This document shows positions 1,002-48,984 of a DNA stretch of 64,000 nt, in pieces (positions within the stretch are counted from its first letter, which is position 1; every line of letters begins with the position of its first letter). The DNA is from an uncultured Solirubrobacterales bacterium (GTDB taxonomy: Bacteria; Actinomycetota; Thermoleophilia; Solirubrobacterales; 70-9), in NCBI GenBank assembly GCA_963795625.1, contig CAWCIS010000006.1:164092-228091 (forward strand), read 5' to 3'. Under the pieces are notes generated by a model. It saw nothing but the letters and a program-made list of their open reading frames with translations, did no database searches and had not been told where the DNA came from. The position numbers and the translations under genes are program-made.

Positions 1002-1020
1002 TTAGAAACCCGTGCATTTC

Positions 1021-1050
1021 TTGACAAGCACTATCCCGTGCCGATACAGT
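1021..1050 (+). promoter_or_regulatory. putative promoter of giant-protein operon 1 (TTGACA - 18 nt - TACAGT)
   Basis: Perfect -35 TTGACA at 1021-1026 and a TANNNT-type -10 at 1045-1050. It lies inside the 5' extension of ORF 1012..5256, which argues for the downstream GTG start. Confidence 0.45.
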
Positions 1051-1116
1051 CCAATGGGATGTCGGGATGAGGAGCATGGGAGTGCTCACCAGGGAAGTAG
1101 CGGAGGGGGGAATCCA

Positions 1117-4100: not shown

Positions 4101-5256
4101 CAGGCTCACCTCCTCCTCCAAAGCTGCTGCGGGAGAACCGGATCTCTACCGTTATGAACTCGGCAACGCCGAAGAACCGCTAACCGACATCACCAAAGGC
4201 TCGGTTCCGGGCAACGTGCAAGGAGTGGTCGGAGCCTCTGAAGACGGCTCTTATGTCTACTTCGTCGCCAAAGCGGCGCTGACGGGCGAAGCAACGAACG
4301 GCGCCGGGCTAAAAGCCGAAAAAGGCGGTGAGAACCTCTACCTCTACCACGAAGGCCAACTGACGTTTATCGCCACCCTTGCCGCCCCTGAAAACGGCTT
4401 AGGCCGAGACGAAAGCAACTGGTCATCGGAACTGCGGCGCCTAAGCGCCCGCGTCTCCGCCGACGGCAGGCACCTGGCCTTCCTCTCGATCGAAGCGCAG
4501 AAACTGGCGGGCTATGAGAACACCCGCGCCTCAGGCAAACCCTGCGAATACTCCCTGAACGAGAACAGCGCAGAATTCATCGGCAGCTCCCTCTGCTCGC
4601 AGGCCTTCCTCTATGACGCCGACAGCGGCAAGCTGACCTGCGCCTCCTGCAACCCCTCGGGAGCGCGGCCGAAGGGCCCGACGATCTTCCCCAACTGGAG
4701 CAACGGCTTCGAAGGCCCGCGCTACCTCTCCAACAACGGCAAGCGCTTGCTCTTCGTCTCCTTCGACTCGCTGCTGCCGACGGATATCAGCGCAAAGGGG
4801 GACGTCTATGAGTTCGAGCTGCCGGGGGAGGGGACCTGCAGCGAGGCCGCCCCGGCCTTCGACCCGGTCTCCGGGGGCTGCCACCTCCTCGTCTCCAGTG
4901 GCAAAAGCAGCGACGAAAGCTTCCTGATCGATGCGTCAAGCGACGGCCACGACATCTTCTTCTCGACCCGCGACAAATTGGTCGGCTGGGACGTGAACGA
5001 AAACTTCGACATCTACGACTACCGCGAAGGAGGCGGGTTCGCGGAACCGGTGGCAGCATCGGTATGCGGCGGGGAAGCGGGCTGCGTGCCGCCGGCGAGC
5101 CCGCCGCCCGCAGCCTCCGCTCCGGCCACTCCCGGTTTCAGCGGGCCGGGCAACGCGAAGCCGAAGAAGCAAAAGCCCAAGAAGAAGAAGCACAAGCAGG
5201 CCAAGCACAAGAAGAAGGCAAAGCACGCCGGCAAGCAGCGGAGGGCGGGTCGATGA
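1117..5256 (+). CDS. giant exported NHL / FN3-like / PD40 (TolB-like) beta-propeller repeat protein with Lys-rich C-terminal tail
   Basis: GTG at 1117 preceded by GGAGGGGGG. Hydrophobic signal/anchor SVGLASVSIALFSVAIAFLLGVSTSAVA. NHL-like motif GRVYVADSGNNRVDVF. FN3-like modules (TFRFEYV..YHCRVVAEN; YHYRLRARN). PD40-like repeats SSDGSKVFWT, AADGSVAYFT, SEDGSYVYFV, SADGRHLAFLS, SNNGKRLLFVS, SSDGHDIFFST. Tail KPKKQKPKKKKHKQAKHKKKAKH. Confidence 0.85.
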   Translation: MKSKISSVGLASVSIALFSVAIAFLLGVSTSAVAEIAPFCTPGIQGGKCEDPHGIAVDTETGRVYVADSGNNRVDVFRSDGIFLFTFGWGVKTGANELQTCTTGCQAGIAGAGLGQFSSPSWIAVDNDAASSSRHDVYVGTDNFRVQKFDPNGELVKAFGTEGHVGKQGTGACEFAREKDPIAVGSGGNVYVADSFDKDGPGSGHVFVSRIIVFSSSSSGACSEIELPNIEGDFKTIQALAVDSTGHIYVTVEADGRGIRKYSPSGVLEKELDVATETTEGLFTPSLSIDTADNLFAEQLAERLLEGETVDFFTEYSPAGVRLKHFGYLIHPGGLVVPALAAYHSPSGDLYANEGSQEIKYLQLPPPGPVIASVACKVKAETLGSSKATLQARVDPEGKQTTFRFEYVTQDQFELNEWDQAEITDPSTLPAEVELEEATIEVKGLKPETKYHCRVVAENVDSATPVHGEEGTFTTLEGFEFGPAWSGNVGETSATIFVDGNPLETPATGQIEYVEDAKYQPDHSFAEAQSAPAPELDFGNGNTMKLVQVTLSGLKPGTLYHYRLRARNGTPPEGLICPERKPACPELEHTFRTYSVGAAGAGEADHRRYELVSPGEKNSAEVGVFGPAAGFFEDRAMRIVASAGSGEAVTYTSWTSFGQAEGSFAASQYLSKRTEGGWVTANTSPFGFVANVLDPPYLGFTPDLGYGAFKTTEPPLTGDCRKGSEDMYLRDNETGALRCLSPEISGGPNAACLVFAGAREDGGRVFVAGRPEGGESYTYSLYESTPSGIQLISVLPSGEPAPATPGTSFGPSRSSSGPENCQVSRTRLSSAISSDGSKVFWTYVPEASVRVTPTAPGTQKVTVAGATEGDFTLSFQDKTTAPIALKASAGVLQAALESLSTIGAGNVEVSGSGPYVVTFKGALSGTEVQLSSNAGNLRAELTQLLVRVDNSKTNQLDAPPPPPADQKNVGKGPAGGGVFWAAAADGSVAYFTATGRLTSSSKAAAGEPDLYRYELGNAEEPLTDITKGSVPGNVQGVVGASEDGSYVYFVAKAALTGEATNGAGLKAEKGGENLYLYHEGQLTFIATLAAPENGLGRDESNWSSELRRLSARVSADGRHLAFLSIEAQKLAGYENTRASGKPCEYSLNENSAEFIGSSLCSQAFLYDADSGKLTCASCNPSGARPKGPTIFPNWSNGFEGPRYLSNNGKRLLFVSFDSLLPTDISAKGDVYEFELPGEGTCSEAAPAFDPVSGGCHLLVSSGKSSDESFLIDASSDGHDIFFSTRDKLVGWDVNENFDIYDYREGGGFAEPVAASVCGGEAGCVPPASPPPAASAPATPGFSGPGNAKPKKQKPKKKKHKQAKHKKKAKHAGKQRRAGR

Positions 5257-8200
5257 GCGCGGTGAGGAGGTCTCTGGCGATCCTGGCGGCCCTAACGGCG
5301 CTGGCTGCCCCCGCGAGCGCTGCTGCGGCAATCGAAAAGCCGGCCTGGAGCGTGCAGCCCCTGGCGACGCCGACCAACTTCCTGGCGGGCGAACAGAGCG
5401 AATTCAACAAGCAGCCCCGCTACCAGGTGTTCATCACCAACAGCGGCGGCGAAAAGACCAATTCGAGCCCGATCAGGATCACCGACACGCTGCCGGCGGG
5501 GGTGGTGGTGAAAAGCGCAGAGTTGGAACCGCCTCGAGGGTTTCTGGGCTCCCTGGGAAAAGTCTGCAAAACCAAAGTCGCGGGCCAAGTCAGCACGGTC
5601 AGCTGCGAAGTCGAAGAAGCGGTGCCGGCGGGACTGGAACCGGCGCGACTCTCACCGGGCAACCAGATGTTCCTGGAAATCAAAGTGGCGGTGCCGGCGA
5701 CGCTCAGCGGCGCGCTGGTCAACCGGGTGGAAGTGGAAGGGGGCGGCGCGGAAGCGGTGGCGGCGGAGGGGGAGAACGAAGTCAACAGCGAAAACCCTGA
5801 AGCCGGGTTCCAGGAATTCAGGGCCGAACTTACCGGGGCCGACGGGAGGCCGGCGAGCGCGGCCGACTCCCACCCCTACCAGTACACGACGAGCTTCGGG
5901 TTGAACGTGATCGCGGCGCCCCCGGGCGTCACGGGCTCGGTGGTGCCAGCGGGGGGCGATACGAAGAAGATCGAAGTGGCGCTGCCGCCGGGGCTGGCGG
6001 GGAACCCGACCGTGGTGCCGCCCTGCCCGGCGCAGCAGTTCACGACCCACCGTAACGTCTACTCCCCGACCCGGGAAAACTTCATCACCTCGAACGAATG
6101 CCCGGACGCCTCGGTGGTGGGGGTGGCCAACCTGGAGCAGCTGGAAGGGGAATCGGCGGTGTTGGCGACGCCGATCTACAGCCTCGTCCCGCCGAAGGGG
6201 ATGCCGGCACAATTCGGCTTCGAAGTCGTAGGCGGCCCGCTCTACATCAATACGAGGCTGCGCAGCGATGGCGACTACGGGATCACGGCCTTCCTGGCCA
6301 ACATCACCGAGGCGAAGCGGCTGACGGCGGGGCGGTTCACCTTCTGGGGGACGCCGTGGGATGAAAGCCACACGCCAATGCGGGGTGAATGCTCGAAATC
6401 GTGGGAAACGAAATGCAAAGTGCCAGGGGCCGACGGCGCGCGGGCGTTCCTGCGGATGCCGAGCTCGTGCGCGGATCCGCTGGTGACGACGATGAGCTTC
6501 ACGACCTGGACGCGGCCGCCGGCGGCCGCGGGCGAGACCTCGGGGGAAGCGGCACCGACGGCGTGCGCCGCACCGCCGTTCGGGCCGACGATCGAATCGC
6601 GACCGAGCACGGACGTGGCGGACTCACCGGCGGGCCTTCACTTCGACCTGCATCTGCCCCAGCGCGAGCACGAAGGCCCGGCGGACACGGGAGAGGCGGA
6701 CCTGCGCGACGTGGCGGTGGCGCTGCCGAAGGGGCTGGTGGTGAACCCGGCCTCGGCGGATGGGCGCGCCGCCTGTTCTCCCGCTCAAGTCGGCCTGGCG
6801 AGCGCGCCGGGAGCGAGCCCGATCCGCTTCAACCTGGCGGCGGCGAGCTGCCCGGACGCGGCGAAGGTGGGGACGGTGGAAGCAGTGGCACCGGCGCTCG
6901 ATCACCCGATCGCGGGGAGCATCTACCTGGCGACCCAGGAAGAGAACCCCTTCAACAACCTCATCGCCCTCTACGTCGTCTTCGAAGACCCCCGCAGCGG
7001 AATCGTGATCAAGCTCGCCGGCAAGGTCACCCTGGACCCGGCGACGGGACAGGTGTCGACGAGCTTCACGGAAAACCCGCAGGTCCCGGTCGAAGACTTC
7101 AAGTTCGACTTCTTCGAGGGTGCCAGAGCACCGCTTCGCACCCCGATGGCGTGCGGGGACTACACGACCACCTCGACGATGACGCCGTGGACCGCTCCCG
7201 CCGGCCTCAGTACGACGCCCTCAGACTCCTTCCACGTCGGCGCCGGCCCGCAGGGCCCCTGTCCGAGCGGCGCCTTGGACCCAAGGCTCGCCGCCGGGAT
7301 GGCGAACCCCAGCGCCGGCACCTACAGCCCCTTCAGCCTGCGCCTGACCCGGGCCGATGGCACCGGCGAATTCGCCCGCCTCACCACCACGCCGCCGCTG
7401 GGCTTCACGGCCCGCCTGGCCGGGGTCCCCTACTGCCCGCAGGCGGGGATCGACCAGGCGATCGCCCGCGAACATCCCGGCCAGGGCGCCCTCGAGCTCG
7501 CGAACCCGTCCTGCCCGGCGGCCTCCCAGGTCGGAACCGTCAGCGCCGGCGCCGGCGCCGGCCCCACCCCGATCTACACCTCTGGCAAGCTCTACCTCGC
7601 CGGCCCCTACAAAGGTGCCCCGCTCTCGCTGGTGGCGATCATCCCCGCGATCGCCGGCCCCTTCGACCTCGGCACCGTCACCAGCCGGGTCGCCGCCCGC
7701 CTGGACCCCGAAACCGCCCAGGTCACCGCGGTGGCCGACCCGCTGCCGCTGATCCGCTCGGGCATCGTGCTCGACCTGCGCGACCTGCGGGTCAACCTCG
7801 ACCGGCCGGACTTCGCCCTCGCCCCGACCAGCTGCGAACCAAAGAGCGTGGGGGCGACTGTGCAGGGCACCTCGGGCAACTCCGCCACCGTCTCCCAGCG
7901 CTTCCAGGTCGGTGGTTGCGGAGCGCTGAAGTTCAAGCCGTCCGTCTCCCTGACGCTGAAGGGCGGTACGAAGCGATCCGATCACCCGGCCCTCAAAGCG
8001 GTGGTCACCTATCCGCAGAAGGGCCGCTACGCCAACACCGCCAAGGCCTCGGTCGCCCTCCCGCACTCCGAGTTCCTCGAGCAGGCCCACATCCGCACGA
8101 TCTGCACCAGGGTCCAGTTCGCCGCGAACGCCTGCCCCAAAGGCGCGATCTACGGTAAGGCCAAGGCCTTCACGCCACTGCTCGACAAGCCCCTTGAAGG

Positions 8201-8525
8201 CCCGGTCTACCTGCGCTCCTCCTCCAACCCCCTGCCCGACATGGTCCTCGACCTCCACGGCCAGATCGACGTCGTCGGCGTGGCCCGGATCGACTCCCAC
8301 AAGGGCGGCATCCGCTCCAGCTTCGAAGCCGTTCCCGACGCGCCGCTCTCCAAGGTGATCGTCGAACTGCCCGCCGGCAAGAAGGGCCTGCTGGTCAACT
8401 CGCGCAACATCTGCAACCACACCAACCGCGCCACCGCCAACTTCACCGCCCACAACGGCAAGACCTCCGAGTCGCGGCCGGTGCTGAAGGACAGCTGCAG
8501 GGGCAAGAAGCGCAAGAAATCGTAG
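5253..8525 (+). CDS. ~1090-aa exported partner protein (DUF11/CARDB-like N-terminal motif, remainder unknown)
   Basis: ATG at 5253 overlaps the upstream stop (ATGA). Signal peptide MSAVRRSLAILAALTALAAPASAAAA. ITDTLPAGVVV motif. Colinear paralog of 18073..21270 (shared blocks GTPWDESH..RGEC, IYLA..NPF..L(I/L)ALY(V/L)V..(I/V)(V/K)(L/V)AGK(V/L)T(L/P)DP). Ends CRGKKRKKS. Confidence 0.85.
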   Translation: MSAVRRSLAILAALTALAAPASAAAAIEKPAWSVQPLATPTNFLAGEQSEFNKQPRYQVFITNSGGEKTNSSPIRITDTLPAGVVVKSAELEPPRGFLGSLGKVCKTKVAGQVSTVSCEVEEAVPAGLEPARLSPGNQMFLEIKVAVPATLSGALVNRVEVEGGGAEAVAAEGENEVNSENPEAGFQEFRAELTGADGRPASAADSHPYQYTTSFGLNVIAAPPGVTGSVVPAGGDTKKIEVALPPGLAGNPTVVPPCPAQQFTTHRNVYSPTRENFITSNECPDASVVGVANLEQLEGESAVLATPIYSLVPPKGMPAQFGFEVVGGPLYINTRLRSDGDYGITAFLANITEAKRLTAGRFTFWGTPWDESHTPMRGECSKSWETKCKVPGADGARAFLRMPSSCADPLVTTMSFTTWTRPPAAAGETSGEAAPTACAAPPFGPTIESRPSTDVADSPAGLHFDLHLPQREHEGPADTGEADLRDVAVALPKGLVVNPASADGRAACSPAQVGLASAPGASPIRFNLAAASCPDAAKVGTVEAVAPALDHPIAGSIYLATQEENPFNNLIALYVVFEDPRSGIVIKLAGKVTLDPATGQVSTSFTENPQVPVEDFKFDFFEGARAPLRTPMACGDYTTTSTMTPWTAPAGLSTTPSDSFHVGAGPQGPCPSGALDPRLAAGMANPSAGTYSPFSLRLTRADGTGEFARLTTTPPLGFTARLAGVPYCPQAGIDQAIAREHPGQGALELANPSCPAASQVGTVSAGAGAGPTPIYTSGKLYLAGPYKGAPLSLVAIIPAIAGPFDLGTVTSRVAARLDPETAQVTAVADPLPLIRSGIVLDLRDLRVNLDRPDFALAPTSCEPKSVGATVQGTSGNSATVSQRFQVGGCGALKFKPSVSLTLKGGTKRSDHPALKAVVTYPQKGRYANTAKASVALPHSEFLEQAHIRTICTRVQFAANACPKGAIYGKAKAFTPLLDKPLEGPVYLRSSSNPLPDMVLDLHGQIDVVGVARIDSHKGGIRSSFEAVPDAPLSKVIVELPAGKKGLLVNSRNICNHTNRATANFTAHNGKTSESRPVLKDSCRGKKRKKS

Positions 8526-8661: not shown

Positions 8662-8690
8662 TTGATCGCTCAGCAAAAGCTGCCTATGAC
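8662..8690 (+). promoter_or_regulatory. putative promoter of paralog 2
   Basis: Same TTGATC-17-TATGAC motif and leader as 113..141. Confidence 0.4.
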
Positions 8691-8745
8691 TCTCAGGACC
8701 GCGCGGCCAGAGGGGCCGGGCGACTACTACAAGGAGCCAGATCGA

Positions 8746-9492
8746 ATGATCCGCAATCTCAAGGTCCTGCTGCTCAGCGCAATGGCGCTGGCAGCCTTCG
8801 GCGCCGTCAGCGCCGGCGCCGCTCACGCGGCAGAAGAATTCCACTGTCAGGCGGGGGTGACTCCCTGCACAATCACAGCGTCTCAGGATGGCGCCGCCGG
8901 CTCAGCGACAGGTGGGCAGGTGTTCATTGTCAAAAACAACCAACCTAAACCAGAAACCGGTTCCTTCAAATGTGGGACGGTGTCAGGAGGCGCGACATCG
9001 ACCACCGTCACGACCCCAGAACTCACAGTCGGCGCAGCCGGCCTATTGGCATACGGCAGCTGCAAAGTCAACGGCAGCTCTGAAGTCAAAGTCCGGATGA
9101 ACGAATGCCATTATCTGTTTACAGCCCTCAATGGCGGAACGACCGCAGGCGCGATAGTCCACGTCCTGTGCAAAACCGAAAAACACATCGAAATCGAAAT
9201 CCTCGAAACCGGCTGCATATTCGAAGTGACACCGCAGACACTGACGGGGGTTCATTACCACAACATCGGCACCAAAGGAACCTCTTCGACAGAAACGACA
9301 GTCGAAGTAAAAATCCCCAACTCCCCCCCCACCTCCCCAGGTATCACCGTCGAGGTCAAAGCAGTGGGTACCGGATGCCTTCCCAAAGCAGCCGTGGGAG
9401 AAACCCTCACCGCCGAATACAACGGCAACGCGCTGGCTACAGCAGAGAAAGACAACACCAATAAAGAAATGGTCGAAGGCTGGTGGGCATAG
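8746..9492 (+). CDS. Cys-rich secreted protein, paralog 2
   Basis: ORF 8623..9492 trimmed to MIRNLKVLLLSAMALAAFGAVSAGAAHA. Carries an insertion KIPNSPPTSPGI in the variable patch. Ends MVEGWWA. Confidence 0.85.
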   Translation: MIRNLKVLLLSAMALAAFGAVSAGAAHAAEEFHCQAGVTPCTITASQDGAAGSATGGQVFIVKNNQPKPETGSFKCGTVSGGATSTTVTTPELTVGAAGLLAYGSCKVNGSSEVKVRMNECHYLFTALNGGTTAGAIVHVLCKTEKHIEIEILETGCIFEVTPQTLTGVHYHNIGTKGTSSTETTVEVKIPNSPPTSPGITVEVKAVGTGCLPKAAVGETLTAEYNGNALATAEKDNTNKEMVEGWWA

Positions 9493-9544
9493 TCATCAGT
9501 CGACTACATCCCGATTGCTGCAGCTAGCGATCAGGACGTGACGA

Positions 9545-9652
9545 GCCGGCACGGACCAAGAAGATAGGCGTGGTCCGTGCCGGCTACTCAACGGGGAGCG
9601 CGCTGGACCGATTTCTGCCTGTCTCTATTCGGCGGACGCGCCGAACAGAGAC
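9545..9652 (+). terminator. conserved double-hairpin intergenic module (copy 1)
   Basis: Hairpin 1 at 9545-9584: GCCGGCACGGACCA / TGGTCCGTGCCGGC. Hairpin 2 at 9621-9652: GTCTCTATTCGGCG-GACG-CGCCGAACAGAGAC. Confidence 0.45.
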
Positions 9653-9724
9653 ACGGCCTTTGCAGGGGAGACGCCGGCTTGCCGGGACTGCCTCGTCAGA
9701 CGGCGTCACTCATCGAGTCCCAGC

Positions 9725-9753
9725 TTGATCGCTCAGCAAAAGCTGCCTATGAC
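9725..9753 (+). promoter_or_regulatory. putative promoter of paralog 3
   Basis: Same motif as 113..141. Confidence 0.4.
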
Positions 9754-9809
9754 TCTCAGGACCGCGCGGCCAGAAGGGGCCGGGCGACTACTACAAGGAG
9801 CGAGATCGA

Positions 9810-10529
9810 ATGATCCGCAATCTCAAAGTCCTGTTGGCGGCCGCGATGGCGCTGGCAGCCTTCGGCGCCGTCAGCGCCGGCGCCGCTCACGCGGCAGAAG
9901 AATTCCACTGTCAGGCGGGGGTGACTCCATGCACAATCACAGCGTCCCAGGATGGCGCCGCTGGTTCGGTGACAGGGTCGCAGGTATTCATCCCTAAAAA
10001 CAAAGCAGGAGAAACCGCTTCCTTCAAATGTGGGACGGTGTCAGGAGGCGCGACATCGGCCACCGTCACAACCCCAGAACTCACAGTCGGCGCAGCCGGG
10101 GCGCTGGCTTACGGCAGCTGCAAAATCAACGGCAGCTCTGAAGTCAAAGTCCGGATGAACGAATGCCATTACCTGTTTACAGCCCTCAATGGCGGAACGA
10201 CCGCAGGCGCGATAGTCCACGTCCTGTGCAAAACCGCGAAACACATTGAAATCGAAACCCCCGAAGACGGCTGCATATTCGAAGTGACACCGCAGACACT
10301 GACGGGGGTTCATTACCACAACATCGGCACCAAAGGAACCTCTTCGACAGAAACGACAGTCGAAATAAACGCCACCGGTATCAGCGTGGAGACCTCCCAT
10401 GTGGGTACCGGGTGTATTCCCAGAGCAGCCGTGGGAGAAACCCTCACCGCTACCTACAACGGCAACGCGCTCGCCACAGCAGAGAAAGACAACACCAATA
10501 AAGAAATGGTCGAAGGCTGGTGGGCATAG
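9810..10529 (+). CDS. Cys-rich secreted protein, paralog 3
   Basis: ORF-track ORF. The signal peptide and first ~80 codons are identical to paralog 1. Ends MVEGWWA. Confidence 0.88.
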   Translation: MIRNLKVLLAAAMALAAFGAVSAGAAHAAEEFHCQAGVTPCTITASQDGAAGSVTGSQVFIPKNKAGETASFKCGTVSGGATSATVTTPELTVGAAGALAYGSCKINGSSEVKVRMNECHYLFTALNGGTTAGAIVHVLCKTAKHIEIETPEDGCIFEVTPQTLTGVHYHNIGTKGTSSTETTVEINATGISVETSHVGTGCIPRAAVGETLTATYNGNALATAEKDNTNKEMVEGWWA

Positions 10530-10581
10530 TCATCAGTCGACTACATCCCGATTGCTGCAGCTAGCGATCAGGACGTGACGA

Positions 10582-10689
10582 GCCGGCACGGACCAAGAAG
10601 ATAGGCGTGGTCCGTGCCGGCTACTCAACGGGGAGCGCGCTGGACCGATTTCTGCCTGTCTCTATTCGGCGGACGCGCCGAATAGAGAC
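10582..10689 (+). terminator. double-hairpin intergenic module (copy 2)
   Basis: Same sequence as 9545..9652, shifted by 1037 nt. Hairpin 2 is perfect here (GAATAGAGAC). Confidence 0.45.
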
Positions 10690-10761
10690 ACGGCCTTTGC
10701 AGGGGAGACGCCGGCTTGCCGGGACTGCCTCGTCAGACGGCGTCACTCATCGAGTCCCAGC

Positions 10762-10790
10762 TTGATCGCTCAGCAAAAGCTGCCTATGAC
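10762..10790 (+). promoter_or_regulatory. putative promoter of paralog 4
   Basis: Same motif as 113..141. Confidence 0.4.
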
Positions 10791-10845
10791 TCTCAGGACC
10801 GCTCGGCCACAGGGGTCGGGCGACTACTACAAGGAGCGAGATCGA

Positions 10846-11565
10846 ATGATCCGCAATCTCAAAGTCCTGCTGCTCAGCGCAATGGCGCTGGCTGCCTTCG
10901 GCGCCCTGAGCGCCGGCGCTGCTCACGCAGCAGAGGAATTCCACTGTCAGGCGGGGGTGGCTCCCTGCACATGGACAGCATCTCAGGATGGCGCAGCGGG
11001 TTCAGCAACAGGGGCGCAACTATTCATCCCTAAAAACAAAGCAGGAGAAACCGCTTCCTTCAAATGTGGGACGGTGTCAGGAGGCGCGACATCGGCCACC
11101 GTCACAACCCCAGAACTCACATTCGGCGCAGTCGGGGCACTGGCTTACGGCAGCTGCAAAGTCAACGGCAGCTCTGAAGTCAAAGTCCGGATGAACGGCT
11201 GTCACTATCTGTTTACAGCCCTCAATGGCGGAACGGCCGCGGGCGCAATAGTTCACATCCTGTGCGAAACCACGCAACACATCGAAAGAGAAGTTCCAGA
11301 AACCGGTTGCATACTAGAAACAACACCGCAGACACTTACCGGGGTTCACTACCACAACATCGGCACCAAAGGAACCAACTCGACAGAAATAACAGTTGAA
11401 ATGAAAGTCTCAGGCCTCGTTGTGGAGGTTGCCAAAGCGGGCACCGGGTGCCTTCCCAAAGCAGCCGTGGGAGAAACCCTCACCGCCGAACTCAATGGCA
11501 ACATGATCTTCACAGCAGAGAAGGACAACGCCAACAAAGAAATGGTCGAAGGCTGGTGGGCATAG
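10846..11565 (+). CDS. Cys-rich secreted protein, paralog 4
   Basis: ORF 10762..11565 trimmed to MIRNLKVLLLSAMALAAFGALSAGAAHA. Ends MVEGWWA. Confidence 0.85.
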   Translation: MIRNLKVLLLSAMALAAFGALSAGAAHAAEEFHCQAGVAPCTWTASQDGAAGSATGAQLFIPKNKAGETASFKCGTVSGGATSATVTTPELTFGAVGALAYGSCKVNGSSEVKVRMNGCHYLFTALNGGTAAGAIVHILCETTQHIEREVPETGCILETTPQTLTGVHYHNIGTKGTNSTEITVEMKVSGLVVEVAKAGTGCLPKAAVGETLTAELNGNMIFTAEKDNANKEMVEGWWA

Positions 11566-11617
11566 TCATCAGTCGACTACATCCCGATTTCTGCAGCTAG
11601 CGATCAGGATGTGACGA

Positions 11618-11724
11618 GCCGGCACGGACCAAAAGATAGGCGTGGTCCGTGCCGGCTACTCAACGGGGAGCGCGCTGGACCGATTTCTGCCTGTCTCTAT
11701 TCGGCGGACGCGCCGAACAGAGAC
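11618..11724 (+). terminator. double-hairpin intergenic module (copy 3)
   Basis: Hairpin 1 at 11618-11656 (loop 1 nt shorter). Hairpin 2 at 11693-11724. Confidence 0.45.
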
Positions 11725-11797
11725 ACGGCCTTTGCAGGGGAGACGCCGGCTTGCCGGGAACTGCCTCGTCAGACGGCGTCACTCATCGAGTCCCAGC

Positions 11798-11826
11798 TTG
11801 ATCGCTCAGCAAAAGCTGCCTATGAC
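11798..11826 (+). promoter_or_regulatory. putative promoter of paralog 5
   Basis: Same motif as 113..141. Confidence 0.4.
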
Positions 11827-11881
11827 TCTCAGGACCGCTCGGCCACAGGGGTCGGGCGACTACTACAAGGAGCGAGATCGA

Positions 11882-12601
11882 ATGATCCGCAATCTCAAAG
11901 TCCTGCTGCTCAGCGCGATGGCGCTGGCGGCCTTCGGCGCCGTCAGCGCCGGCACCGCTCACGCGGCAGAAGAATTCCACTGTCAGGCAGGGGTGGCTCC
12001 CTGCACAATCACAGCGTCCCAGGATGGCGCCGCTGGTTCGGTGACAGGTTCGCAGGTATTCGTCCCCAAAAACAAAGCAGGAGAAACCGGCTCCTTCAAA
12101 TGTGGGACGGTGGAAGGAGGCGCGACATCGGCCACCGTCACAACCCCAGAACTCACAGTCGGCGCAGCCGGGGCGCTGGCTTACAGCAGCTGCAAAGTCA
12201 ACGGCAGCTCTGAAGTCAAAGTCCGAATGCACAGCTGTCACTATCTGTTTACAGCCGTAAACGGCGGAACGGCCGCGGGCGCAATAGTTCACATCCTGTG
12301 CGAAACCGAAGAACACATCGAAATCGAAATCCCCGAAACCAAATGCATATTTGAAGTGACACCGCAGACACTGACGGCGGCGCACTACCACAACATCGGC
12401 ACCAAAGGAACCAACTCGACAGAAACGACAGCCGAAATAAAAGCCACGGGTATCACCGTCGAGGTCAAAGCAGTGGGTACCGGGTGTATTCCCAAAGCAG
12501 GCCTGGGGGAAACCCTCACCGCTACCTACAACGGTAACGCGCTGGCCACAGCAGAGAAAGACAACACCGACAAAGAAATGGTCGAAGGCTGGTGGGCATA
12601 G
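11882..12601 (+). CDS. Cys-rich secreted protein, paralog 5
   Basis: ORF 11642..12601 trimmed to MIRNLKVLLLSAMALAAFGAVSAGTAHA. Ends MVEGWWA. Confidence 0.85.
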   Translation: MIRNLKVLLLSAMALAAFGAVSAGTAHAAEEFHCQAGVAPCTITASQDGAAGSVTGSQVFVPKNKAGETGSFKCGTVEGGATSATVTTPELTVGAAGALAYSSCKVNGSSEVKVRMHSCHYLFTAVNGGTAAGAIVHILCETEEHIEIEIPETKCIFEVTPQTLTAAHYHNIGTKGTNSTETTAEIKATGITVEVKAVGTGCIPKAGLGETLTATYNGNALATAEKDNTDKEMVEGWWA

Positions 12602-12653
12602 CCATCAGTCGACTACACCCCGATTGCTGCTGCTAGCGATCAGGACGTGACGA

Positions 12654-12760
12654 GCCGGCACGGACCAAAAGATAGGCGTGGTCCGTGCCGGCCACTCAAC
12701 GGGGAGCGCGCAGGACCGATTTCTGCCTGTCTCTATTCGGCGGACGCGCCGAATAGAGAC
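12654..12760 (+). terminator. double-hairpin intergenic module (copy 4)
   Basis: Hairpin 1 at 12654-12692. Hairpin 2 at 12729-12760. Confidence 0.45.
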
Positions 12761-12823
12761 ACGGTCTTTGCAGGGCAGAAGCCAGCCCCCCCGGAACTGC
12801 CTCGTCACTCGTCGAGTCCTAGC

Positions 12824-12852
12824 TTGATCGCTCAGCAAAAGCTGCCTATGAA
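12824..12852 (+). promoter_or_regulatory. putative promoter of paralog 6 (TTGATC-17-TATGAA)
   Basis: Same position and spacing as the other copies; the -10 differs by one base. Confidence 0.35.
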
Positions 12853-12907
12853 TCGCGGGACCGCTCGGCCAAGGGGGCCGGGCGACTATTACAAGGAGCG
12901 AGATCGA

Positions 12908-13630
12908 ATGATCCGCAATCTCAAAGTCCTGCTTGCCGCCGCGATGGCGCTGGCAGCCTTCGGCGTCGTGAACGCCGGCGCCGCTCACGCGGCAGGGGAG
13001 CTATTCCACTGTCAGGCGGGGGTGGCTCCCTGCACAATTACAGCGTCCCAGGACGGCGCAGCCGGCACGGCGGCAGGGGCGCAGGTGTTCGTCCCCAAAA
13101 ACAAAGCAGGAGAAACCGGCTCCTTCAAATGCGGGACGGTGGAAGGAGGCGCGACATCGACCACCGTCACAACCCCAGAACTCACATTCGGCGCAGCCGG
13201 CCTACTGGCTTACGGCAGCTGCAAAGTCAACGGCAGCTCTGAAGTCAAAGTCCGGATGAACGGCTGTCACTATCTGTTTACAGCCGCGAACGGCGGAACG
13301 GTCGCAGGTGCGATAATACATGTTCTGTGTACGACCGCAAAACATGTCGAAATCGAAATCCCGGAAACCGGTTGCATATTCGAAGTGACACCGCAAACAC
13401 TGACGGGAGCTCACTACCACAACATCGGTACCTCGGGGACCAGCTCGACAGAAGTAACAGTCGAAGTACAAGTTAGCGGTGTCGTCGTCGAGGTCAAGGC
13501 AGTAGGTATTGGATGCATACCCAGAGCAGCTGTGGGAGACACCCTCACCGCCACCTACAACGGCAATCTGCTCTTTACAGCAGAGAAAGACAACACTAAC
13601 AAAGAGATGGTCGAATTCTGGTGGGCATAA
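12908..13630 (+). CDS. Cys-rich secreted protein, paralog 6
   Basis: ORF 12647..13630 trimmed to MIRNLKVLLAAAMALAAFGVVNAGAAHA. Ends MVEFWWA. Confidence 0.85.
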   Translation: MIRNLKVLLAAAMALAAFGVVNAGAAHAAGELFHCQAGVAPCTITASQDGAAGTAAGAQVFVPKNKAGETGSFKCGTVEGGATSTTVTTPELTFGAAGLLAYGSCKVNGSSEVKVRMNGCHYLFTAANGGTVAGAIIHVLCTTAKHVEIEIPETGCIFEVTPQTLTGAHYHNIGTSGTSSTEVTVEVQVSGVVVEVKAVGIGCIPRAAVGDTLTATYNGNLLFTAEKDNTNKEMVEFWWA

Positions 13631-13679
13631 TCCTAAGTTGACAAGAACCCAACGGGAGGGTACGACGACCGTTTTTTGC

Positions 13680-13715
13680 GTATCTCTATTCGGCGCGCGC
13701 GCCGAATAGAGATAC
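13680..13715 (+). terminator. single palindromic hairpin (variant of hairpin 2)
   Basis: GTATCTCTATTCGGCGCG / CGCGCCGAATAGAGATAC is a 36-nt perfect palindrome. Hairpin 1 is absent in this spacer, and a T6 run precedes the palindrome. Confidence 0.4.
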
Positions 13716-13787
13716 GGCCCTTTGCAGGGCCGAAGCCGGTTCGTCTGGAACCGCTCAAGCAGGCGCGAGGACCCAGCGGACCCCGGC

Positions 13788-13816
13788 TTGATCGCTCAGC
13801 GAGAGCTGCCTATGAA
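13788..13816 (+). promoter_or_regulatory. putative promoter of paralog 7 (TTGATC-17-TATGAA)
   Basis: Same architecture as the other copies, with a more diverged leader. Confidence 0.35.
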
Positions 13817-13870
13817 TTGTGGGAATGCTCGACCACAGGGCCGGGCGACTACGACAAGGAGCGAGATCGA

Positions 13871-14584
13871 ATGATCCGCAATCTCAAAGTCCTGCTGCTC
13901 AGCGCGATGGCGCTGGCGGCCTTCGGCGCGCTCAGCGCCGGCGCCGCTCACGCGGCAGAAGAATTCCACTGTCAGGTAGGGGTGGCACCCTGCACATGGA
14001 CAGGTTCCCAGGATGGTGCAGCGGGTTCAGTAACAGGCGGGCAGGTGCTCGTCATCAAAAACGCCGCAGGAGAAATCGCCTCCTTCAAATGCGGCACGGT
14101 GTCCGGAGGCGCGACATCGACCACCGTCACAACCCCGGAACTCACATTCGGCGCAGCTGGGGCGCTGGCTTACGGCAGCTGTAAAGTCAACGGCAGCTCT
14201 CAGGTCACTGTCCGGATGAACGGCTGTCACTACCTGTTTACAGCCGCAAACGGCAAAACGGAAGCAGGCGCGACAGTTCACATCCTGTGTGCAACCGAAA
14301 AACACATCGAAAGAGAAATTCCAGAAACCGGCTGCATACTAGAAACAACACCGCAGACATTGACCGGAGCTCACTACCACAACATCGGCGCCGGAGCTAC
14401 GACAGAAACGACAGTCGAAGTGAAAGTCAGCGGTGTCGTCGTCGAGGTCAAGGCAGTGGGCAGCGGGTGTCTTCTCCCTGTGAAAGTGGGAGAAACTCTC
14501 ACCGCCACGTACAACGGCAACATGATCATCACAGCAGAGAAAGACAACAGCAACAAAGAAATGGTCGAAGCCTGGTGGGCATAG
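13871..14584 (+). CDS. Cys-rich secreted protein, paralog 7 (most divergent)
   Basis: ORF 13676..14584 trimmed to MIRNLKVLLLSAMALAAFGALSAGAAHA. Ends MVEAWWA. Confidence 0.85.
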   Translation: MIRNLKVLLLSAMALAAFGALSAGAAHAAEEFHCQVGVAPCTWTGSQDGAAGSVTGGQVLVIKNAAGEIASFKCGTVSGGATSTTVTTPELTFGAAGALAYGSCKVNGSSQVTVRMNGCHYLFTAANGKTEAGATVHILCATEKHIEREIPETGCILETTPQTLTGAHYHNIGAGATTETTVEVKVSGVVVEVKAVGSGCLLPVKVGETLTATYNGNMIITAEKDNSNKEMVEAWWA

Positions 14585-14589
14585 CCGTC

Positions 14590-14619
14590 GGTGAGGGGTC
14601 GCCAGGGCGACCCCTCACC
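14590..14619 (+). terminator. GC-rich hairpin terminating the array
   Basis: GGTGAGGGGTCGCC-AG-GGCGACCCCTCACC, starting 6 nt after the stop codon. Confidence 0.55.
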
Positions 14620-14831: not shown

Positions 14832-15675
14832 ATGAAGTTGAACCGCTATGTCGGCCTTCTCTTGGCGGTCGCCGGTTTGATCACCGCTTTCGCGGCGCTC
14901 AGCCCGGTGGCCCAGGCCGCGAAACCTAATCCCGGCTACACGCAGTTTGCCGGCTGTCCCAATCTGTATACAGAAAATCCGAACAGCCTCACCTGTCTCC
15001 GCTCCGAAATCAAGAGCGGCAAATTCAAGATGGGGAACAAAGAAGTTCCGATCGAACATCCGATCGTCTTGACGGGCGGGGTCCAAAAACTCTTCTCGCC
15101 GACGCCGGTCTACTTCAACTCCGAAGGCGGACTGACGAAAGTCAAACAGAAAGTCCCCGGCGGCATCATCGGCCTCACCGGATTGACCTGGCTGGCTGAA
15201 TTCCTCGGCATCGAAGCGTTGACGCTGTACGCAACGACCGAATTGGCTGGCACTCCGATCGTTGCCGGCACCGCGTTCGCGCAGCTCGCCGATCAAAGTG
15301 CACCTGGAGAACACGACCGGCGTTCTGGGCAAAAGCTGCTACGTCGGGTCGAACTCGGCTCCGATCGTCCTCAACCTGACGACCGGTACGACCAGCCCGC
15401 CGCCGCCCAACAAACCGATTTCAGGGAAAGAACCGTTCCTTGAATTCGAACCGATTCTGGAAATCCAGAAGGCGAAAAACGGCACCTACGTGGACAACTC
15501 GTTCGCGGCTCCCGGTGCCAACGGCTGCGTCCTGACGCTGTTCGGCTTCATCCCGATCAGCATCAACGGCCTGGTCAACACTCAGTCGGGCCTGCCGTCT
15601 CCGGCTGGGACCAACGAAACGGTGCAGAATTTCGACGCAGAACTCGCTGCGGGCGAACTGGTGTACACCGAATAG
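14832..15675 (+). pseudogene. exported protein of a second small family, interrupted by a +1 frame break (or sequencing error)
   Basis: ORF 14832..15443 has signal peptide MKLNRYVGLLLAVAGLITAFAALSPVAQA and looks protein-like until ~15290, then becomes Arg-rich nonsense. ORF 15262..15675 (frame +1) continues protein-like (IKVHLENTTGVLGKSCYVGS..). Frame +1 is closed upstream by a TGA at 15220-15222. Confidence 0.6.
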
Positions 15676-15823: not shown

Positions 15824-18076
15824 TTGAGGGGTCGGTTTCTACTTACGCTCGGCGTTTTCGCCATGGCTGCTTGTTGCCTGGCTGCGCTGGCCGGTGCAGC
15901 GATGCCGCAGGTGGACGAGACTTGGGTCGAAGCAGTTGCCACCGACACCGCCGATCTTCATGCGCGGGTCGATAGTGGCGGTCTCGCTAGCACCTACCGC
16001 TTTGACTACATCGCCGAATCCGCTTACCTGGCGAATCTGGAGGCGGGCAGGGAAGGGTTCTTCGGGGCAGCGAGTATTCCCCAGCCGGAAGGCAACCCGG
16101 GCAAAGGCGCCGACAGTCCCGTCACGCAGTCGCTTACCGGCCTGCAGAAGGAAACGAGATATCGCTATCGGGTAGCGATACGCAACGCAGACGGGACCGC
16201 GGCAGGTCCGGAGCGGGTGTTCACGACCAAAGGCGCGGAAGGGCCGCTGGCCCTGCTCGACGGTCGCGGCTGGGAGATGGTCTCCCCAGTCGACAAAAAC
16301 GGCGGTGAGGTCCAAGCGCCCGGGACTGGCGGGAGCGGTGGCGTCTTCCAGGCCGCGTCCCAAGGCGGGGCGGTGACGTTCAGCTCCGTCGCTTCGTTCG
16401 GTGCCGACGCCGGCGGCGCCCCGGCGGGCAGCCAGTACGTCGCGCGCCGCGGACCCGGCGGCTGGGGGACCGAAAACGTGACCGCGCCGCTCGCCGCCGC
16501 CGGCTTCGGCGAAGAACCGGTCGGGGTCCCGTACCAGCTGTTCTCTGCCGGGCTTTCGCTCGGTCTGCTGGCGGCGCCCGACTATCCGCCGCTGCCGGGG
16601 ACCCCAGCACCGCCGGGCTATGGCAACTACTACTTGCGGGATGCCGCCGGCGCCTACTCAGCGCTCCTCACCTATGGCGACATCGCTCGCCTGACGGTGC
16701 CACCGCAGGACTTCGAGCTGAGCTTCGCCGGCGCTTCCACGGATCTCTCGCACATCGTGCTCTCGAGCTGCGCGGCCTTGACTGAAAACGCGACCGAAGT
16801 GCCGGGCTCCGGCACGGGCTGCGATCCGAAAGCGCCCAACCTCTATGTGCGCTCGGCAGCTGGCTGGCGATTGCTGAACCTGCTGCCGGGCGATTCCATC
16901 GGCACGCCGCCGGGCCGACTGGCCGCCCCCGCGGGCGCGGTCTCGGCCGACGGCTCGCGCGTCTTCTGGACCGACGGGTCCGACCTCTATCTCAACCAGG
17001 AAGGCGCCGGCTCGGTCCAGGTCGACGGTGCCGTCGGCGGCGGTGGGACCTTCCAGACCGCCGCGGCCGACGGCTCGGTCGTCTACTTCACCAAGGGCGG
17101 CAGCCTTTACCGCTACGACGTCGCCGGAGAAGCGACCGCGGACCTGACTCCCGGTGGCGGCGTGATCGGGGTACTGGGCGCCTCCGCCGACGGCTCGGCG
17201 GGGTACTACGCCACCACCGCCGGGGTCTTCCTCAACCGGGCCGGCGTCACCACCGGCCCGTTCGCCTCCGCCGTCGACCCCTCGAGCTTCCCGCCGAGTA
17301 CCGGGACCGCCCGAGTCAGCGCCGACGGCAACAGCCTCGCCTTCCTCTCTTCGGCCGAACTCACCCCGTACGACAACACCGAAACCACCACCAGCGGGCC
17401 CGGCAAACCCGTCTCCGAGGTCTATCTCTACGACGCCGGCGCAAACAAGCTCACCTGCGTCTCCTGCAACCCCACCGGGGAACGCCCGAAGGGGCCCTCG
17501 ACGATCCCTGGCGCGATCGCCAACGGCCCGGGCGAAGGCGCCACCCGTGCCTACAAGCCGCGGGCGCTCAGCGCCGACGGCGACCGCCTCTTCTTCGACA
17601 CCCGCGACGCGCTGGTCCCCAGGGCCGACACGAACGGGGAACCTGACGTCTACGAGTGGGAGGCAGACGGCAGCGGCACCTGCGCTCGAGCCGCCGGATG
17701 CCTGCAGCTGATCTCCTCCGGCAGCGGTCGCCCCGCCTCCTTCGTCGATGCCAGCGCGAACGGCGAGGACGTCTTCTTCCTCACCGCCAACTCGCTGGTC
17801 GGGACCGATCCTGGCTCGGTCGACCTCTACGACGCCCGCGAAGGCGGCGGCTTCGCCGAACCGCCGCCCCCGTTCATCTGCGAAGAGGACGCCTGCCAGC
17901 CGCTGCCGCCGCCCCCCGACGACCCCACTCCTGGCACCCTCGTGCCGACCGGCGGCAACCCGCCGGTTCACTTCCCGAAGGCCCACAAGACGAAGCCTCG
18001 GCACAAGCGCAAGCACCGGGCCCAGCGCCGGCAACGAAGTGGGCGCCACCACAGCAGGCCGGAGGGGAGACGATGA
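15824..18076 (+). CDS. exported FN3-like / PD40 beta-propeller protein with Arg/Lys/His-rich tail (shorter paralog of 1117..5256)
   Basis: Signal peptide MRGRFLLTLGVFAMAACCLAALAGAA. FN3-like TYRFDYI..RYRYRVAIRN. PD40-like SADGSRVFWT, AADGSVVYFT, SADGSAGYYA, SADGNSLAFLS, SADGDRLFFDT, SANGEDVFFLT. The C-terminal block YDAREGGGFAEPPPP..C..C is shared with the first giant protein. Tail KAHKTKPRHKRKHRAQRRQR. Confidence 0.85.
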   Translation: MRGRFLLTLGVFAMAACCLAALAGAAMPQVDETWVEAVATDTADLHARVDSGGLASTYRFDYIAESAYLANLEAGREGFFGAASIPQPEGNPGKGADSPVTQSLTGLQKETRYRYRVAIRNADGTAAGPERVFTTKGAEGPLALLDGRGWEMVSPVDKNGGEVQAPGTGGSGGVFQAASQGGAVTFSSVASFGADAGGAPAGSQYVARRGPGGWGTENVTAPLAAAGFGEEPVGVPYQLFSAGLSLGLLAAPDYPPLPGTPAPPGYGNYYLRDAAGAYSALLTYGDIARLTVPPQDFELSFAGASTDLSHIVLSSCAALTENATEVPGSGTGCDPKAPNLYVRSAAGWRLLNLLPGDSIGTPPGRLAAPAGAVSADGSRVFWTDGSDLYLNQEGAGSVQVDGAVGGGGTFQTAAADGSVVYFTKGGSLYRYDVAGEATADLTPGGGVIGVLGASADGSAGYYATTAGVFLNRAGVTTGPFASAVDPSSFPPSTGTARVSADGNSLAFLSSAELTPYDNTETTTSGPGKPVSEVYLYDAGANKLTCVSCNPTGERPKGPSTIPGAIANGPGEGATRAYKPRALSADGDRLFFDTRDALVPRADTNGEPDVYEWEADGSGTCARAAGCLQLISSGSGRPASFVDASANGEDVFFLTANSLVGTDPGSVDLYDAREGGGFAEPPPPFICEEDACQPLPPPPDDPTPGTLVPTGGNPPVHFPKAHKTKPRHKRKHRAQRRQRSGRHHSRPEGRR

Positions 18077-21000: not shown

Positions 21001-21270
21001 CCGCTGCGCGGCAACGGCATCGCGATCGACCTGGTCGGCCGGATCGACTCCCACCACGGGGGTCTGCGCGCCACCTTCGACGTGGTCCCGGACGCGCCGG
21101 TGACGAAGTTCGGGCTGACGATGAGGGGCGGCAAGCGCTCGCTCCTCGTCGTCGCCGAAGACGTCTGCGCGCATCCGCAGCGGGAGACGGCCCTGTTCCT
21201 CGGCCACGACAACGCCGGCTCGGTGGCGCATCCGCCGCTGCAGGCGGAGTGCGGGAGGGGGAAGGGATGA
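18073..21270 (+). CDS. ~1065-aa exported partner protein (paralog of 5253..8525)
   Basis: ATG at 18073 overlaps the upstream stop (ATGA). Signal peptide MRRSRAVALSLAPLAALLLLAPIAMAAA. N-terminal FN3-like TSYRFEYV..AYRYRLTAEN. Colinear with 5253..8525. Confidence 0.85.
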   Translation: MRRSRAVALSLAPLAALLLLAPIAMAAAPSVTTSSATNVQGISALLRGKVDPGGAVTSYRFEYVDQASFEADQPNGFAHAIRTPDAPLEGSGERDVSATVTGLARDTAYRYRLTAENAGGTATGLPQPFTTFHGFGFRSGDGFDVAITQEGGITPELHAGSHPHAITTTINFNLAGESAEHPGVPVSDGDARDLELEMPPGLIENPSAVSKCSQDEFHTSRVSQFEASRSGENCQPLSQIGVVEIRSSAGGGSIRSFGIFNLEPPPGFPAQIGFSPYGVPVAFTPHIRELGGEFGTTLDLHNLTQKFDVYGLTLTIWGTPWTIDHNGQRGECLNEAEPDIPFGKCPVEQGIRPHLPFSYLTLPASCGAPLRFGIAATSWQQPGAVTASALSRDSSGTPAGLTECPRLLFEPRTTTQATNPRASAPSGFDFSLTPAEEALTNPNRRVPSQARRAVVTLPEGMTVNPSLAAGLGSCSPAGYAAESATSPPGAGCPENAKIGTFTVQSQLFEETVKGAIYLAEPDDPATAAPGAENPFDSLLALYLVAKIPARGVVVKVAGKLTPDPGSGRLTAVFDDLPQLPYSNLKMHFREGQRAPLVTPSACGSFATQVDLTPWNAPGVTAHSAPSFTVAKGLGPGGACPDGSLPPFAPGSVAGSFGGAAGSYSPFLLHLTRADSEQELTSYSATLPPGLTGKIAGIPFCPDAAIAAAKAKTGREEERHPSCPAASEIGHTVSGYGAGAVLAYAPGKLYLAGPYRGSTFSVVAIDSATVGPFDLGVVVVRSAIRVDRRTAQVSIDSSNSDPIPHILSGVPIHLRDVRVYIDRPETTLNPTSCDPSSVVSVLTGAGAGFADPGDDSTARVPSRFQVSGCSDLGFAPRFGLHLKGATRRGSYPSLSVDLRPRRGDANIGRAVVTLPPGLFLAQGHIETVCTRRQFDAEHCPPGAVYGQATAVTPLLASPLRGPVYLRSSDNTLPDLVIPLRGNGIAIDLVGRIDSHHGGLRATFDVVPDAPVTKFGLTMRGGKRSLLVVAEDVCAHPQRETALFLGHDNAGSVAHPPLQAECGRGKG

Positions 21271-48916: not shown

Positions 48917-48984
48917 CCCGCCGCACCTTAATGGCCGCCCGGATCGGGCCTGGCGCGATCCGGGCGAGAACCTACCCTCCGTTT

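Follow-up and report, generated by a model that had tools for sequence, protein, structure and literature searches.

The question raised by this locus is why seven complete copies of one small, presumably secreted, cysteine-rich protein are retained together, and what the protein does. The locus lies in a 64,000-nt stretch of contig CAWCIS010000006.1 from an uncultured Solirubrobacterales bacterium (positions 164,092 to 228,091 of the forward strand; below, the window), and comprises an array of six genes, S1 to S6, and a seventh copy, S0, upstream of it. We interpret it as a tandem expansion, specific to this lineage, of an uncharacterised beta-protein that is exported and stabilised by disulfides and is likely an abundant extracellular or surface component, and regard this explanation as moderately probable; our confidence is high for the anatomy and evolution of the array and modest for the function. 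It represents a paralog family, well documented but uncharacterised, rather than a new mechanism.

Exactly seven genes that begin with MIRNLKVLL and end with WWA have been found in the window by the listing of open reading frames (ORFs) and motif search, all of them on the plus strand; the same motif search identifies no such gene on the other strand. The gene order is S0, A–B, S1–S6, C–D–E–F, where A to F denote neighbouring genes (Table 1), and the array as studied here spans the region from the promoter motif of S1 to the hairpin after S6. Repeat finding yields seven in-register copies, with start-to-start spacings in the array of 1058–1064, 1036, 1036, 1026–1029, and 954–963 nt; the period of the units is thus 1029–1064 nt, falling to 960 nt for the last one. 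The proteins are 237–248 amino acids (aa) long and 77–89% identical to S0. Eight cysteines and the last nine residues, K-E-M-V-E-[GFA]-W-W-A, are invariant in the alignment of all seven copies, as are most residues of the signal peptide, so that the array of putatively secreted Cys-rich paralogs with constant cysteines and C-terminus, proposed previously from the sequence alone (the sequence-only reading), is real and consists of seven intact ORFs. The accompanying claim that the first ~180 residues are near-invariant was overstated: 101 of 249 alignment columns vary, approximately 65 of them before the variable patch discussed below, and a second variable spot with an indel is observed at columns 61–75, with omega (the ratio of nonsynonymous to synonymous rates, dN/dS) of 0.89. 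The copies differ pairwise at 55–144 of 246 polymorphic sites and similar arrays are present in independent assemblies; hence the array is not an artefact of assembly, an explanation that the sequence-only reading had named as one that would refute it.

Every S copy is preceded by an upstream motif, TTGATCGCTCAGC[A/G]A[A/G]AGCTGCCTATGA[C/A], and by a Shine–Dalgarno region, AAGGAGC[G/C]AGATCGAATG; the promoter-like motif, leader and ribosome-binding site ascribed earlier to each unit are therefore confirmed, as the motif and AAGGAG are found at all seven copies. A profile scan of genomes has identified S homologues in a Solirubrobacterales metagenome-assembled genome (MAG) and in an “Actinomycetes” MAG, where the S genes have the motif TTGAC[CT]-17/18 nt-TAT[AG]... 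approximately 85 nt before the ATG, followed by a G+C-rich leader and an AGGAG site. It is this positional conservation, and not a match to a consensus, that points to promoter activity, and the positionally conserved architecture suggests that each S unit may be a transcription unit of its own.

The five spacers contain one or two long hairpins each, and single hairpins follow S0 and S6, in agreement with the sequence-only reading, which had placed hairpins after most units. The second, palindromic hairpin has 10 matches vs. 0 expected, and the folding z-score of a 319-nt spacer is –6.0; the spacer has no match in Rfam. Arrays also agree in spacer length, approximately 300–340 nt. In the window, the three spacers ahead of S2, S3, and S4 are 98–100% identical over ~300 nt (K = 0.010–0.016), and the genes that follow them differ by dS (synonymous divergence) of 0.19–0.31. 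We considered constant spacers as a rule for the family, which would imply that they encode a functional RNA or that homogenisation of the genes is selected against, and rejected this possibility, as three other arrays (L007, L008, and L011) have spacers with lower conservation than their coding sequences. Since the identity of the S2–S4 spacers is not seen in other arrays, we read it as a result of recent conversion or unequal crossover.

Sliding-window identity along the unit reveals a mosaic between the copies. S0 and S2 are 100% identical from –13 to approximately +230 and 86–88% identical further on, while the fully identical segments extend from +227 to +317 for S0 and S1, and from +467 to +527 for S1 and S2. 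The tracts were assessed by a GENECONV-style permutation over the 246 polymorphic sites, with the longest identical run per pair as the statistic, and in 11 of 21 copy pairs this run is significant at p < 0.01. An incompatibility test for recombination similar to the pairwise homoplasy index is not significant (p = 0.16), its power being low with seven sequences and saturating incompatibility.

Comparison with a close relative leads in the same direction as the tracts do. On its contig (L009/L010) genes C, D, E, and F are 76–90% identical to those of the window, with dS of 0.23–0.55, and the S gene preceding C is 55–60% identical to each of the seven window copies, with dS of 0.85–1.27. Identity among the window paralogs, in turn, is 77–89%, and dS between them is 0.19–0.47. 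Together with three metagenomic proteins the seven copies form a clade with 73–89% identity, all other relatives having at most 66% (57–66% for the next ones). This identity pattern is a signature of concerted evolution or lineage-specific expansion. The mosaic identity, the significant tracts and the fact that the window copies resemble one another more than they do the L009 S gene all support concerted evolution, as had been suggested from the sequence.

The sequence-only reading had further described a short patch before the last Cys pair that differs in every copy, and attributed it to diversifying selection on one loop. The patch strings it gave are correct (for instance, 9301–9375 translates as VEVKIPNSPPTSPGITVEVKAVGTG), and the patch of S1 holds a 7-residue insertion, but S5 and S6, as well as S1 and S4, have near-shared patches that lie within significant conversion tracts. 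When changes are counted per alignment column, the patch has accumulated 31.7 nonsynonymous and 12.3 synonymous changes in 23 codons, and the other part of the mature protein, 124.5 and 105.5 changes, respectively, in 197 codons. The nonsynonymous density is thus 2.25-fold higher in the patch (Fisher p = 1.6e-6), with no difference in the synonymous density (p = 0.59). The patch is, accordingly, a genuine nonsynonymous hot spot. Its ratio of nonsynonymous to synonymous changes differs from that of the rest (p = 0.03) and is indistinguishable from neutrality (binomial p = 1.0). Omega based on the change counts is 0.96 for the patch (1.14 for its 20-codon core) vs. 0.39 elsewhere, and the pairwise Nei–Gojobori estimates are 0.63 (dN 0.39, dS 0.62) vs. 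0.34; by neither method is the patch value significantly above 1, the power being low with seven recombinant sequences.

Across 69 more distant family members, residues 191–210 have the highest entropy (2.4–2.5 bits) and contain indels, and no comparable concentration of differences is observed in the L011, L008, and L003 arrays, where the differences are spread along the protein. As this segment is the highest-entropy and indel-rich part of the protein family-wide, relaxed constraint accounts for the patch equally well as diversifying selection does. The latter is not demonstrated, given omega of 0.63–1.14 and no replication of the hot spot in three other arrays; at the same time, the values obtained in this codon-based comparison are not well below 1, the outcome that the sequence-only reading had named as refuting its proposal. 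Mapped onto the predicted structure of S2, the patch covers the distal part of a long strand and the beginning of the following loop, just before Cys202. The model thus places it at the tip of one long beta-hairpin, where replacements are concentrated and accrue at about the neutral rate.

The S proteins constitute a family of their own. S0 and S1 have no match in Pfam, and the best E-value among 78 family members compared with Pfam is 0.006, with hits to scattered unrelated families; neither NCBIfam nor PHROGs contains a match to S, a profile search of PDB returns nothing at E ≤ 1, and no S relatives are found in plasmid or phage collections. At the same time, relatives are numerous in protein catalogues: a single query finds 151 clusters at 90% identity and a profile search of 5.8 billion proteins 296, and at 50% identity there are 270 clusters, all of them unnamed or “hypothetical.” A full-text literature search has yielded nothing relevant to the family, its fold, or its signal peptide.

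The AlphaFold2 model of S2, built on the 78-sequence alignment, has a predicted local distance difference test score (pLDDT) of 89.8 and a predicted template modelling (TM) score of 0.82. It comprises a signal helix and 15 beta-strands, several of them 12–17 residues long, and is all-beta. A fold search of this model with Foldseek against PDB and BFVD produces no match at E ≤ 0.001, the query-normalised TM-score being below 0.3, and the modelled fold is apparently without a known analogue. The mature protein is acidic (isoelectric point 5.1–5.4), with a grand average of hydropathy of about 0. The cysteines are conserved across the family. In 55 of 55 cases C34 and C41 are lost jointly, and this co-loss argues for their pairing; the remaining three disulfide pairs are assumed to be sequential along the chain.

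Residues 1–29 of S2 form a predicted Sec-type signal peptide with the n-h-c layout, and S would be exported by the Sec pathway and cleaved after AHA, immediately before AE. The signal peptide, MIRNLK[VI]L[LI]AAAMALAAFGA (present in each copy, e.g., 197–283 in S0), is the most conserved part of the family, with entropy of approximately 0.5 bits at residues 1–20 vs. 1.2–2.5 bits in the mature domain. No other protein in the fetched loci carries it, that is, it is restricted there to S, and it could act as a dedicated routing signal.

In some relatives (P0121, P0122, P0155, P0184, P0211, and P0131) a single polypeptide carries two, three, or four S domains, and some of these proteins have nearly identical repeats. 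A stretch of 5–9 residues separates the W-[WYH] pair of one repeat from the start of the next, and this start corresponds to the position just after the predicted signal cleavage site, at (G)EFHC. The fusions thus fix the domain boundaries and support cleavage between AHA and AE. P0184 is a genuine ORF (positions 1310–3307 of L013), with single-domain S genes on either side. As two to four S domains may be fused, S could be regarded as a repeated module, and this arrangement suggests that S domains may act side by side or head-to-tail.

The same relatives bear on the invariant aromatic tripeptide at the C-terminus, which the sequence-only reading had considered as an assembly or sorting signal. 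The aromatic pair is internal in the fused proteins and hence does not need to be C-terminal; in the model it belongs to the last beta-strand, and some S proteins extend beyond it, ending with W-W-T-A-T-V-A or W-H-A-T-V-A. In general, the final residue of S is A, E, T, or L, with the aromatic pair at –3/–2 or internal. These observations weaken the idea of a sorting signal, and the motif is probably structural.

Genes A to E form the immediate surroundings of the S genes. E is 40% identical to B, and D matches the C-terminal half of A; these two paralogous pairs indicate that the locus was built from repeated modules of the type S(n)–propeller protein–immunoglobulin (Ig)-chain protein. The stop and start codons of A and B (5253–5256), as well as of D and E (18073–18076), overlap as ATGA, implying translational coupling. 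The B family numbers at least 578 clusters; genomes each have several paralogs, and some members are labelled only as “uncharacterized repeat protein (TIGR01451 family).” The model of B (pLDDT 84.5) shows beta-sandwich domains arranged in a chain, and the top fold matches in PDB are the Ig-like domains of PrgB and C123 of antigen I/II (Foldseek E = 1e-15 to 1e-6, probability 1.0).

A near-consensus sigma-70-like promoter, TTGACA-18-TACAGT, is found at 1021–1050. It shortly precedes a GTG near 1117 that is followed by the signal-like VKSKISSVGLASV... and is likely the true start of gene A; the ORF listing probably sets the start (1012) too early. Strongly basic Lys/Arg/His tails close the giant proteins A, B, and D (5120–5256, 8490–8525, and 17950–18076), none of which has an LPXTG motif, with a Pro-rich stretch ahead of the tail in A and D; the consensus of the B family also ends with a K-rich segment. 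The tails may serve as non-covalent cell-wall anchors.

Two of the genes downstream of the array are read in two frames. In gene C the frame is split at ~15287/15289, after ...AGTAFAQL. L001 and L009 each contain the counterpart, 66–86% identical, as a single ORF, and the split in the window reflects a pseudogene or else a sequencing error of one base. Gene F is homologous to a 725-aa protein located after E in L009 and switches frame near 22492–22505. Two such breaks within 8 kb point to indel errors of the assembly. All seven S genes are intact despite these breaks. The remaining part of the window is ordinary chromosome and a restriction-modification or defence cluster, where G+C content dips locally. 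Sortase, integrase, transposase, and reverse transcriptase domains are absent from the approximately 37 ORFs of the window that were scanned.

Table 1. Coordinates of the S genes, their regulatory and variable elements, and neighbouring genes in the window.
Feature	Position	Strand	Remark
Array S1–S6	8662–14619		
S0	197–916	+	239 aa; isolated seventh copy, upstream of giant genes A and B
S1	8746–9492	+	248 aa; two Pro-rich insertions: QP, and PNSPPTS inside the patch
S2	9810–10529	+	239 aa; copy taken for the structure model
S3	10846–11565	+	239 aa
S4	11882–12601	+	239 aa
S5	12908–13630	+	240 aa
S6	13871–14584	+	237 aa; most divergent copy; last in the array, adjoining gene C
Promoter-like motif of S1, TTGATC-17 nt-TATGAC	8662–8690	+	followed by ~55-nt 5' leader (estimated) and AAGGAG Shine–Dalgarno site
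Same promoter-like motif, other copies	113–141, 9725–9753, 10762–10790, 11798–11826, 12824–12852, 13788–13816	+	
Near-identical spacers upstream of S2, S3, S4	9493–9809, 10530–10845, 11566–11881		
Spacer hairpin 1	10582–10621	+	15-bp G+C-rich stem, without U tract
Spacer hairpin 1, copies	9545–9584, 11618–11656, 12654–12692	+	
Spacer hairpin 2	10659–10688	+	palindrome TCTCTATTCGGCG..CGCCGAATAGAGA
Spacer hairpin 2, copies	9622–9651, 11694–11723, 12730–12759, 13683–13712	+	
Terminal single hairpins	966–1001, 14593–14616	+	after S0 and after S6, respectively
Variable patch of S2 (EINATGISVETSHVGTGC)	10362–10415	+	distal part of long strand 181–197 and start of loop 198–210, ending at Cys202
Equivalent patches	749–802 (S0), 9304–9378 (S1), 11398–11451 (S3), 12434–12487 (S4), 13463–13516 (S5), 14417–14470 (S6)	+	
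Gene A	1012–5256	+	~1400 aa, secreted; NHL repeats, FN3/Ig-like and PD40-like domains, Lys-rich C-terminal tail
Gene B	5253–8525	+	1090 aa; secreted Ig-like beta-sandwich chain; paralogous to E
Gene C	14832–15675	+	~280 aa, secreted; read in two frames
Gene D	15824–18076	+	similar to the C-terminal half of A
Gene E	18073–21270	+	B-like
Gene F	21399–23439		read in two frames
Defence cluster	42798–52783		HATPase_c_3 protein, Z1-domain protein (990 aa), Vsr endonuclease, NaeI-like endonuclease, two C-5 cytosine methyltransferases

The same components are observed in other genomes, in varying arrangements: S, A, B, S, C, D, E in L001, A–B–S(5)–A–B in L008, S(5)–A–B in L011, and S–C–D–E–F in L009/L010. 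Homologous S genes often form arrays of 2–6, often beside giant Ig-like or beta-propeller proteins, and the copy number per array varies from 1 to 6 across genomes. In the loci studied (L001–L013 and the window), S genes have 51–60% G+C and third-position G+C content (GC3) of 0.55–0.76, the surroundings having 60–70% G+C; in most other genes of the window GC3 is about 0.9. As the low G+C content of S genes is seen in every genome examined, it is a persistent trait of the family and does not point to recent transfer.

Arrays of this type are known, and the S array resembles both tandem families of extracellular subunits and surface families moulded by conversion between copies. What is new, as far as we have searched, is the protein family with its apparent fold and conserved signal peptide. 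Tandem genes of filament subunits include the multiple flagellins of Caulobacter or Vibrio and the archaellin flaB arrays. These share with the S array, as we interpret it, adjacent complete paralogs of one abundant extracellular structural protein, copy number that varies by lineage, and conserved ends with a variable exposed middle. However, S has no sequence or fold similarity to them, it is predicted to be Sec-exported, disulfide-bonded, and all-beta, no genes of assembly or export machinery are found near it, and its polymerisation is suggested solely by the fused relatives. An S protein is not a subunit of the type IV pilin or archaellin kind, as it has the n-h-c Sec layout with predicted cleavage between AHA and AE rather than a class III signal. 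A sortase-anchored pilin is rejected as well, given the ...KEMVE[GFA]WWA end and the absence of a sortase domain in the window ORFs scanned.

Surface families diversified by gene conversion, such as Neisseria opa and pilE/pilS, Borrelia vlsE, Anaplasma msp2, and Mycoplasma vsa/vlp, have, as S does, conserved ends, localised variable segments, and conversion tracts between copies. The S array differs from cassette systems in having no single expression site, promoterless cassettes, or phase-variable repeat tracts, and the organism seems to be an actinobacterium of the environment rather than a pathogen confined to a host. A system of the pilE/pilS, vlsE, or msp2 type is ruled out, as all seven S copies have the promoter-like motif, Shine–Dalgarno site, ATG, signal peptide, and stop codon. 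Neither is the array a target of a diversity-generating retroelement: no reverse transcriptase domain is present among the scanned ORFs, and the patch is repeated nowhere but in its paralogous counterparts.

Chaplins of Streptomyces occur as short single-domain and long two-domain forms, with a hydrophobic, amyloid-forming domain of ~40 residues, the long ones having sortase signals. Like the S proteins, for which secretion is predicted, they are small secreted actinobacterial paralogs with conserved cysteines, often clustered, in single-domain and fused forms; S, in contrast, has ~210 residues, is acidic, lacks an LPXTG/LAXTG motif, and has no Pfam match. Family-specific conserved signal peptides are known as well, the YSIRK-G/S type of Gram-positive surface proteins and the ESPR type of autotransporters. 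The S signal peptide is likewise conserved far beyond the needs of export, its motif being distinct. For neighbour B only, the beta-sandwich domain chain links it to the adhesins PrgB and antigen I/II C123 as the top fold match; the global TM-scores are 0.1–0.3, as expected for a flexible multi-domain chain, and B differs from these adhesins in lacking LPXTG and having a basic C-terminus. Finally, an outer-membrane beta-barrel with a beta-signal is rejected for S, as its final residue is not aromatic and the matches of the OmpA type have E of about 0.1 and TM-score of 0.2.

In the explanation that we prefer, a lineage-specific expansion of an exported beta-protein, each S unit would be transcribed separately and the spacer hairpins would terminate transcription. 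The product would be exported by Sec and processed to a mature domain of ~210 residues held by four disulfides, while gene conversion homogenises the array. The array would deliver an abundant extracellular or cell-surface component in high dosage and as mixed isoforms, this component working as a repeated module, possibly head-to-tail, and often together with the neighbouring giant adhesin-like Ig-like/beta-propeller proteins; the hairpin tip in the model might be its exposed face, either tolerant to replacements or bearing specificity. Several points weigh against this scheme. The strict sigma-70 consensus scan does not call the S promoter motif, as its second hexamer ends with C or A, and the role of the hairpins as terminators is assumed, U tracts being absent. 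The linkage with giant proteins is not obligate, as the L003 and L005 arrays reside among housekeeping genes (dnaE, mgsA, aldehyde dehydrogenase). The fused proteins come from metagenome contigs and contain near-identical repeats, only one of these proteins having been checked in its contig. The functional part of the scheme is drawn from context and analogy, and the exposure of the patch and the disulfides other than C34–C41 are presumed.

The copies might, instead, represent a repertoire of binding or antigenic variants, with positive selection acting on the hairpin tip, for instance, for evading phages or predators or for binding varied ligands, and conversion keeping the scaffold uniform. 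The excess of nonsynonymous changes in the patch (2.25-fold, with similar synonymous density and a shifted ratio of the two classes) and the 7-residue insertion in S1 are what such a repertoire predicts. The patch differences have also survived although the spacers upstream of S2–S4 have been homogenised, and three further close relatives each have other patch variants. We nevertheless consider it rather unlikely: omega, 0.63–1.14 depending on the method, never significantly exceeds 1, this segment is the least constrained and indel-rich one in the family generally, differences in the L011, L008, and L003 arrays are spread along the protein, and the variants themselves have been copied between paralogs (S5/S6 and S1/S4), while seven recombinant sequences have low power either way. 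The opposite extreme is pure dosage amplification, with redundant copies and all differences being neutral drift incompletely erased by conversion. It agrees with patch omega of about 1 on the background of purifying selection elsewhere, with the identical promoter, Shine–Dalgarno site, and signal peptide kept in every copy, with the variation of copy number among genomes, from 1 to 6 or more, and with the lack of the hot spot in other arrays. Still, at dS of 0.19–0.47 the copies have long been kept intact under purifying selection (omega ~0.39 outside the patch), without decay, and many genomes retain divergent paralogs, which makes full redundancy distinctly improbable.

That the array is an assembly artefact with collapsed or expanded repeats, or a recently acquired mobile or phage island, is extremely improbable. 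The region does have 58% G+C compared to ~70% elsewhere, the near-identical S2–S4 spacers could confuse an assembler, and the two frames of genes C and F hint at sequencing errors. However, every copy is distinct and intact, arrays and the same gene order recur in independent assemblies, S genes are low in G+C and GC3 wherever they were examined, searches of phage and plasmid collections gave no match, and integrase, reverse transcriptase, and transposase domains are lacking in the scanned ORFs. We retain the tandem expansion of an exported, likely abundant extracellular component as the best explanation of the locus.

A bolder extension of it, which we offer as a speculation with small chances of being correct, is that S is a building block of an undescribed sortase-independent surface fibre or sheath of Solirubrobacterales. 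In such a structure a new four-disulfide fold would stack head-to-tail, non-covalently or as fused chains of 2–4 domains, routed by its dedicated signal peptide and decorated or capped by the giant Ig-like/beta-propeller proteins, with the hairpin tips of the isoforms exposed.

The cell surface of Thermoleophilia and Solirubrobacterales, actinobacteria that abound in soil, has hardly been studied. The present analysis defines an unnamed family that spans no fewer than 270 clusters at 50% identity, with a confidently predicted fold apparently lacking a known analogue and an unusually conserved signal peptide, and the array provides a clean, quantifiable bacterial case of concerted evolution, with a promoter motif and an intact ORF in every copy. 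If S is indeed a surface polymer or a binding repertoire, it would offer a handle on the envelope biology of this clade and on its interactions with phages and predators.

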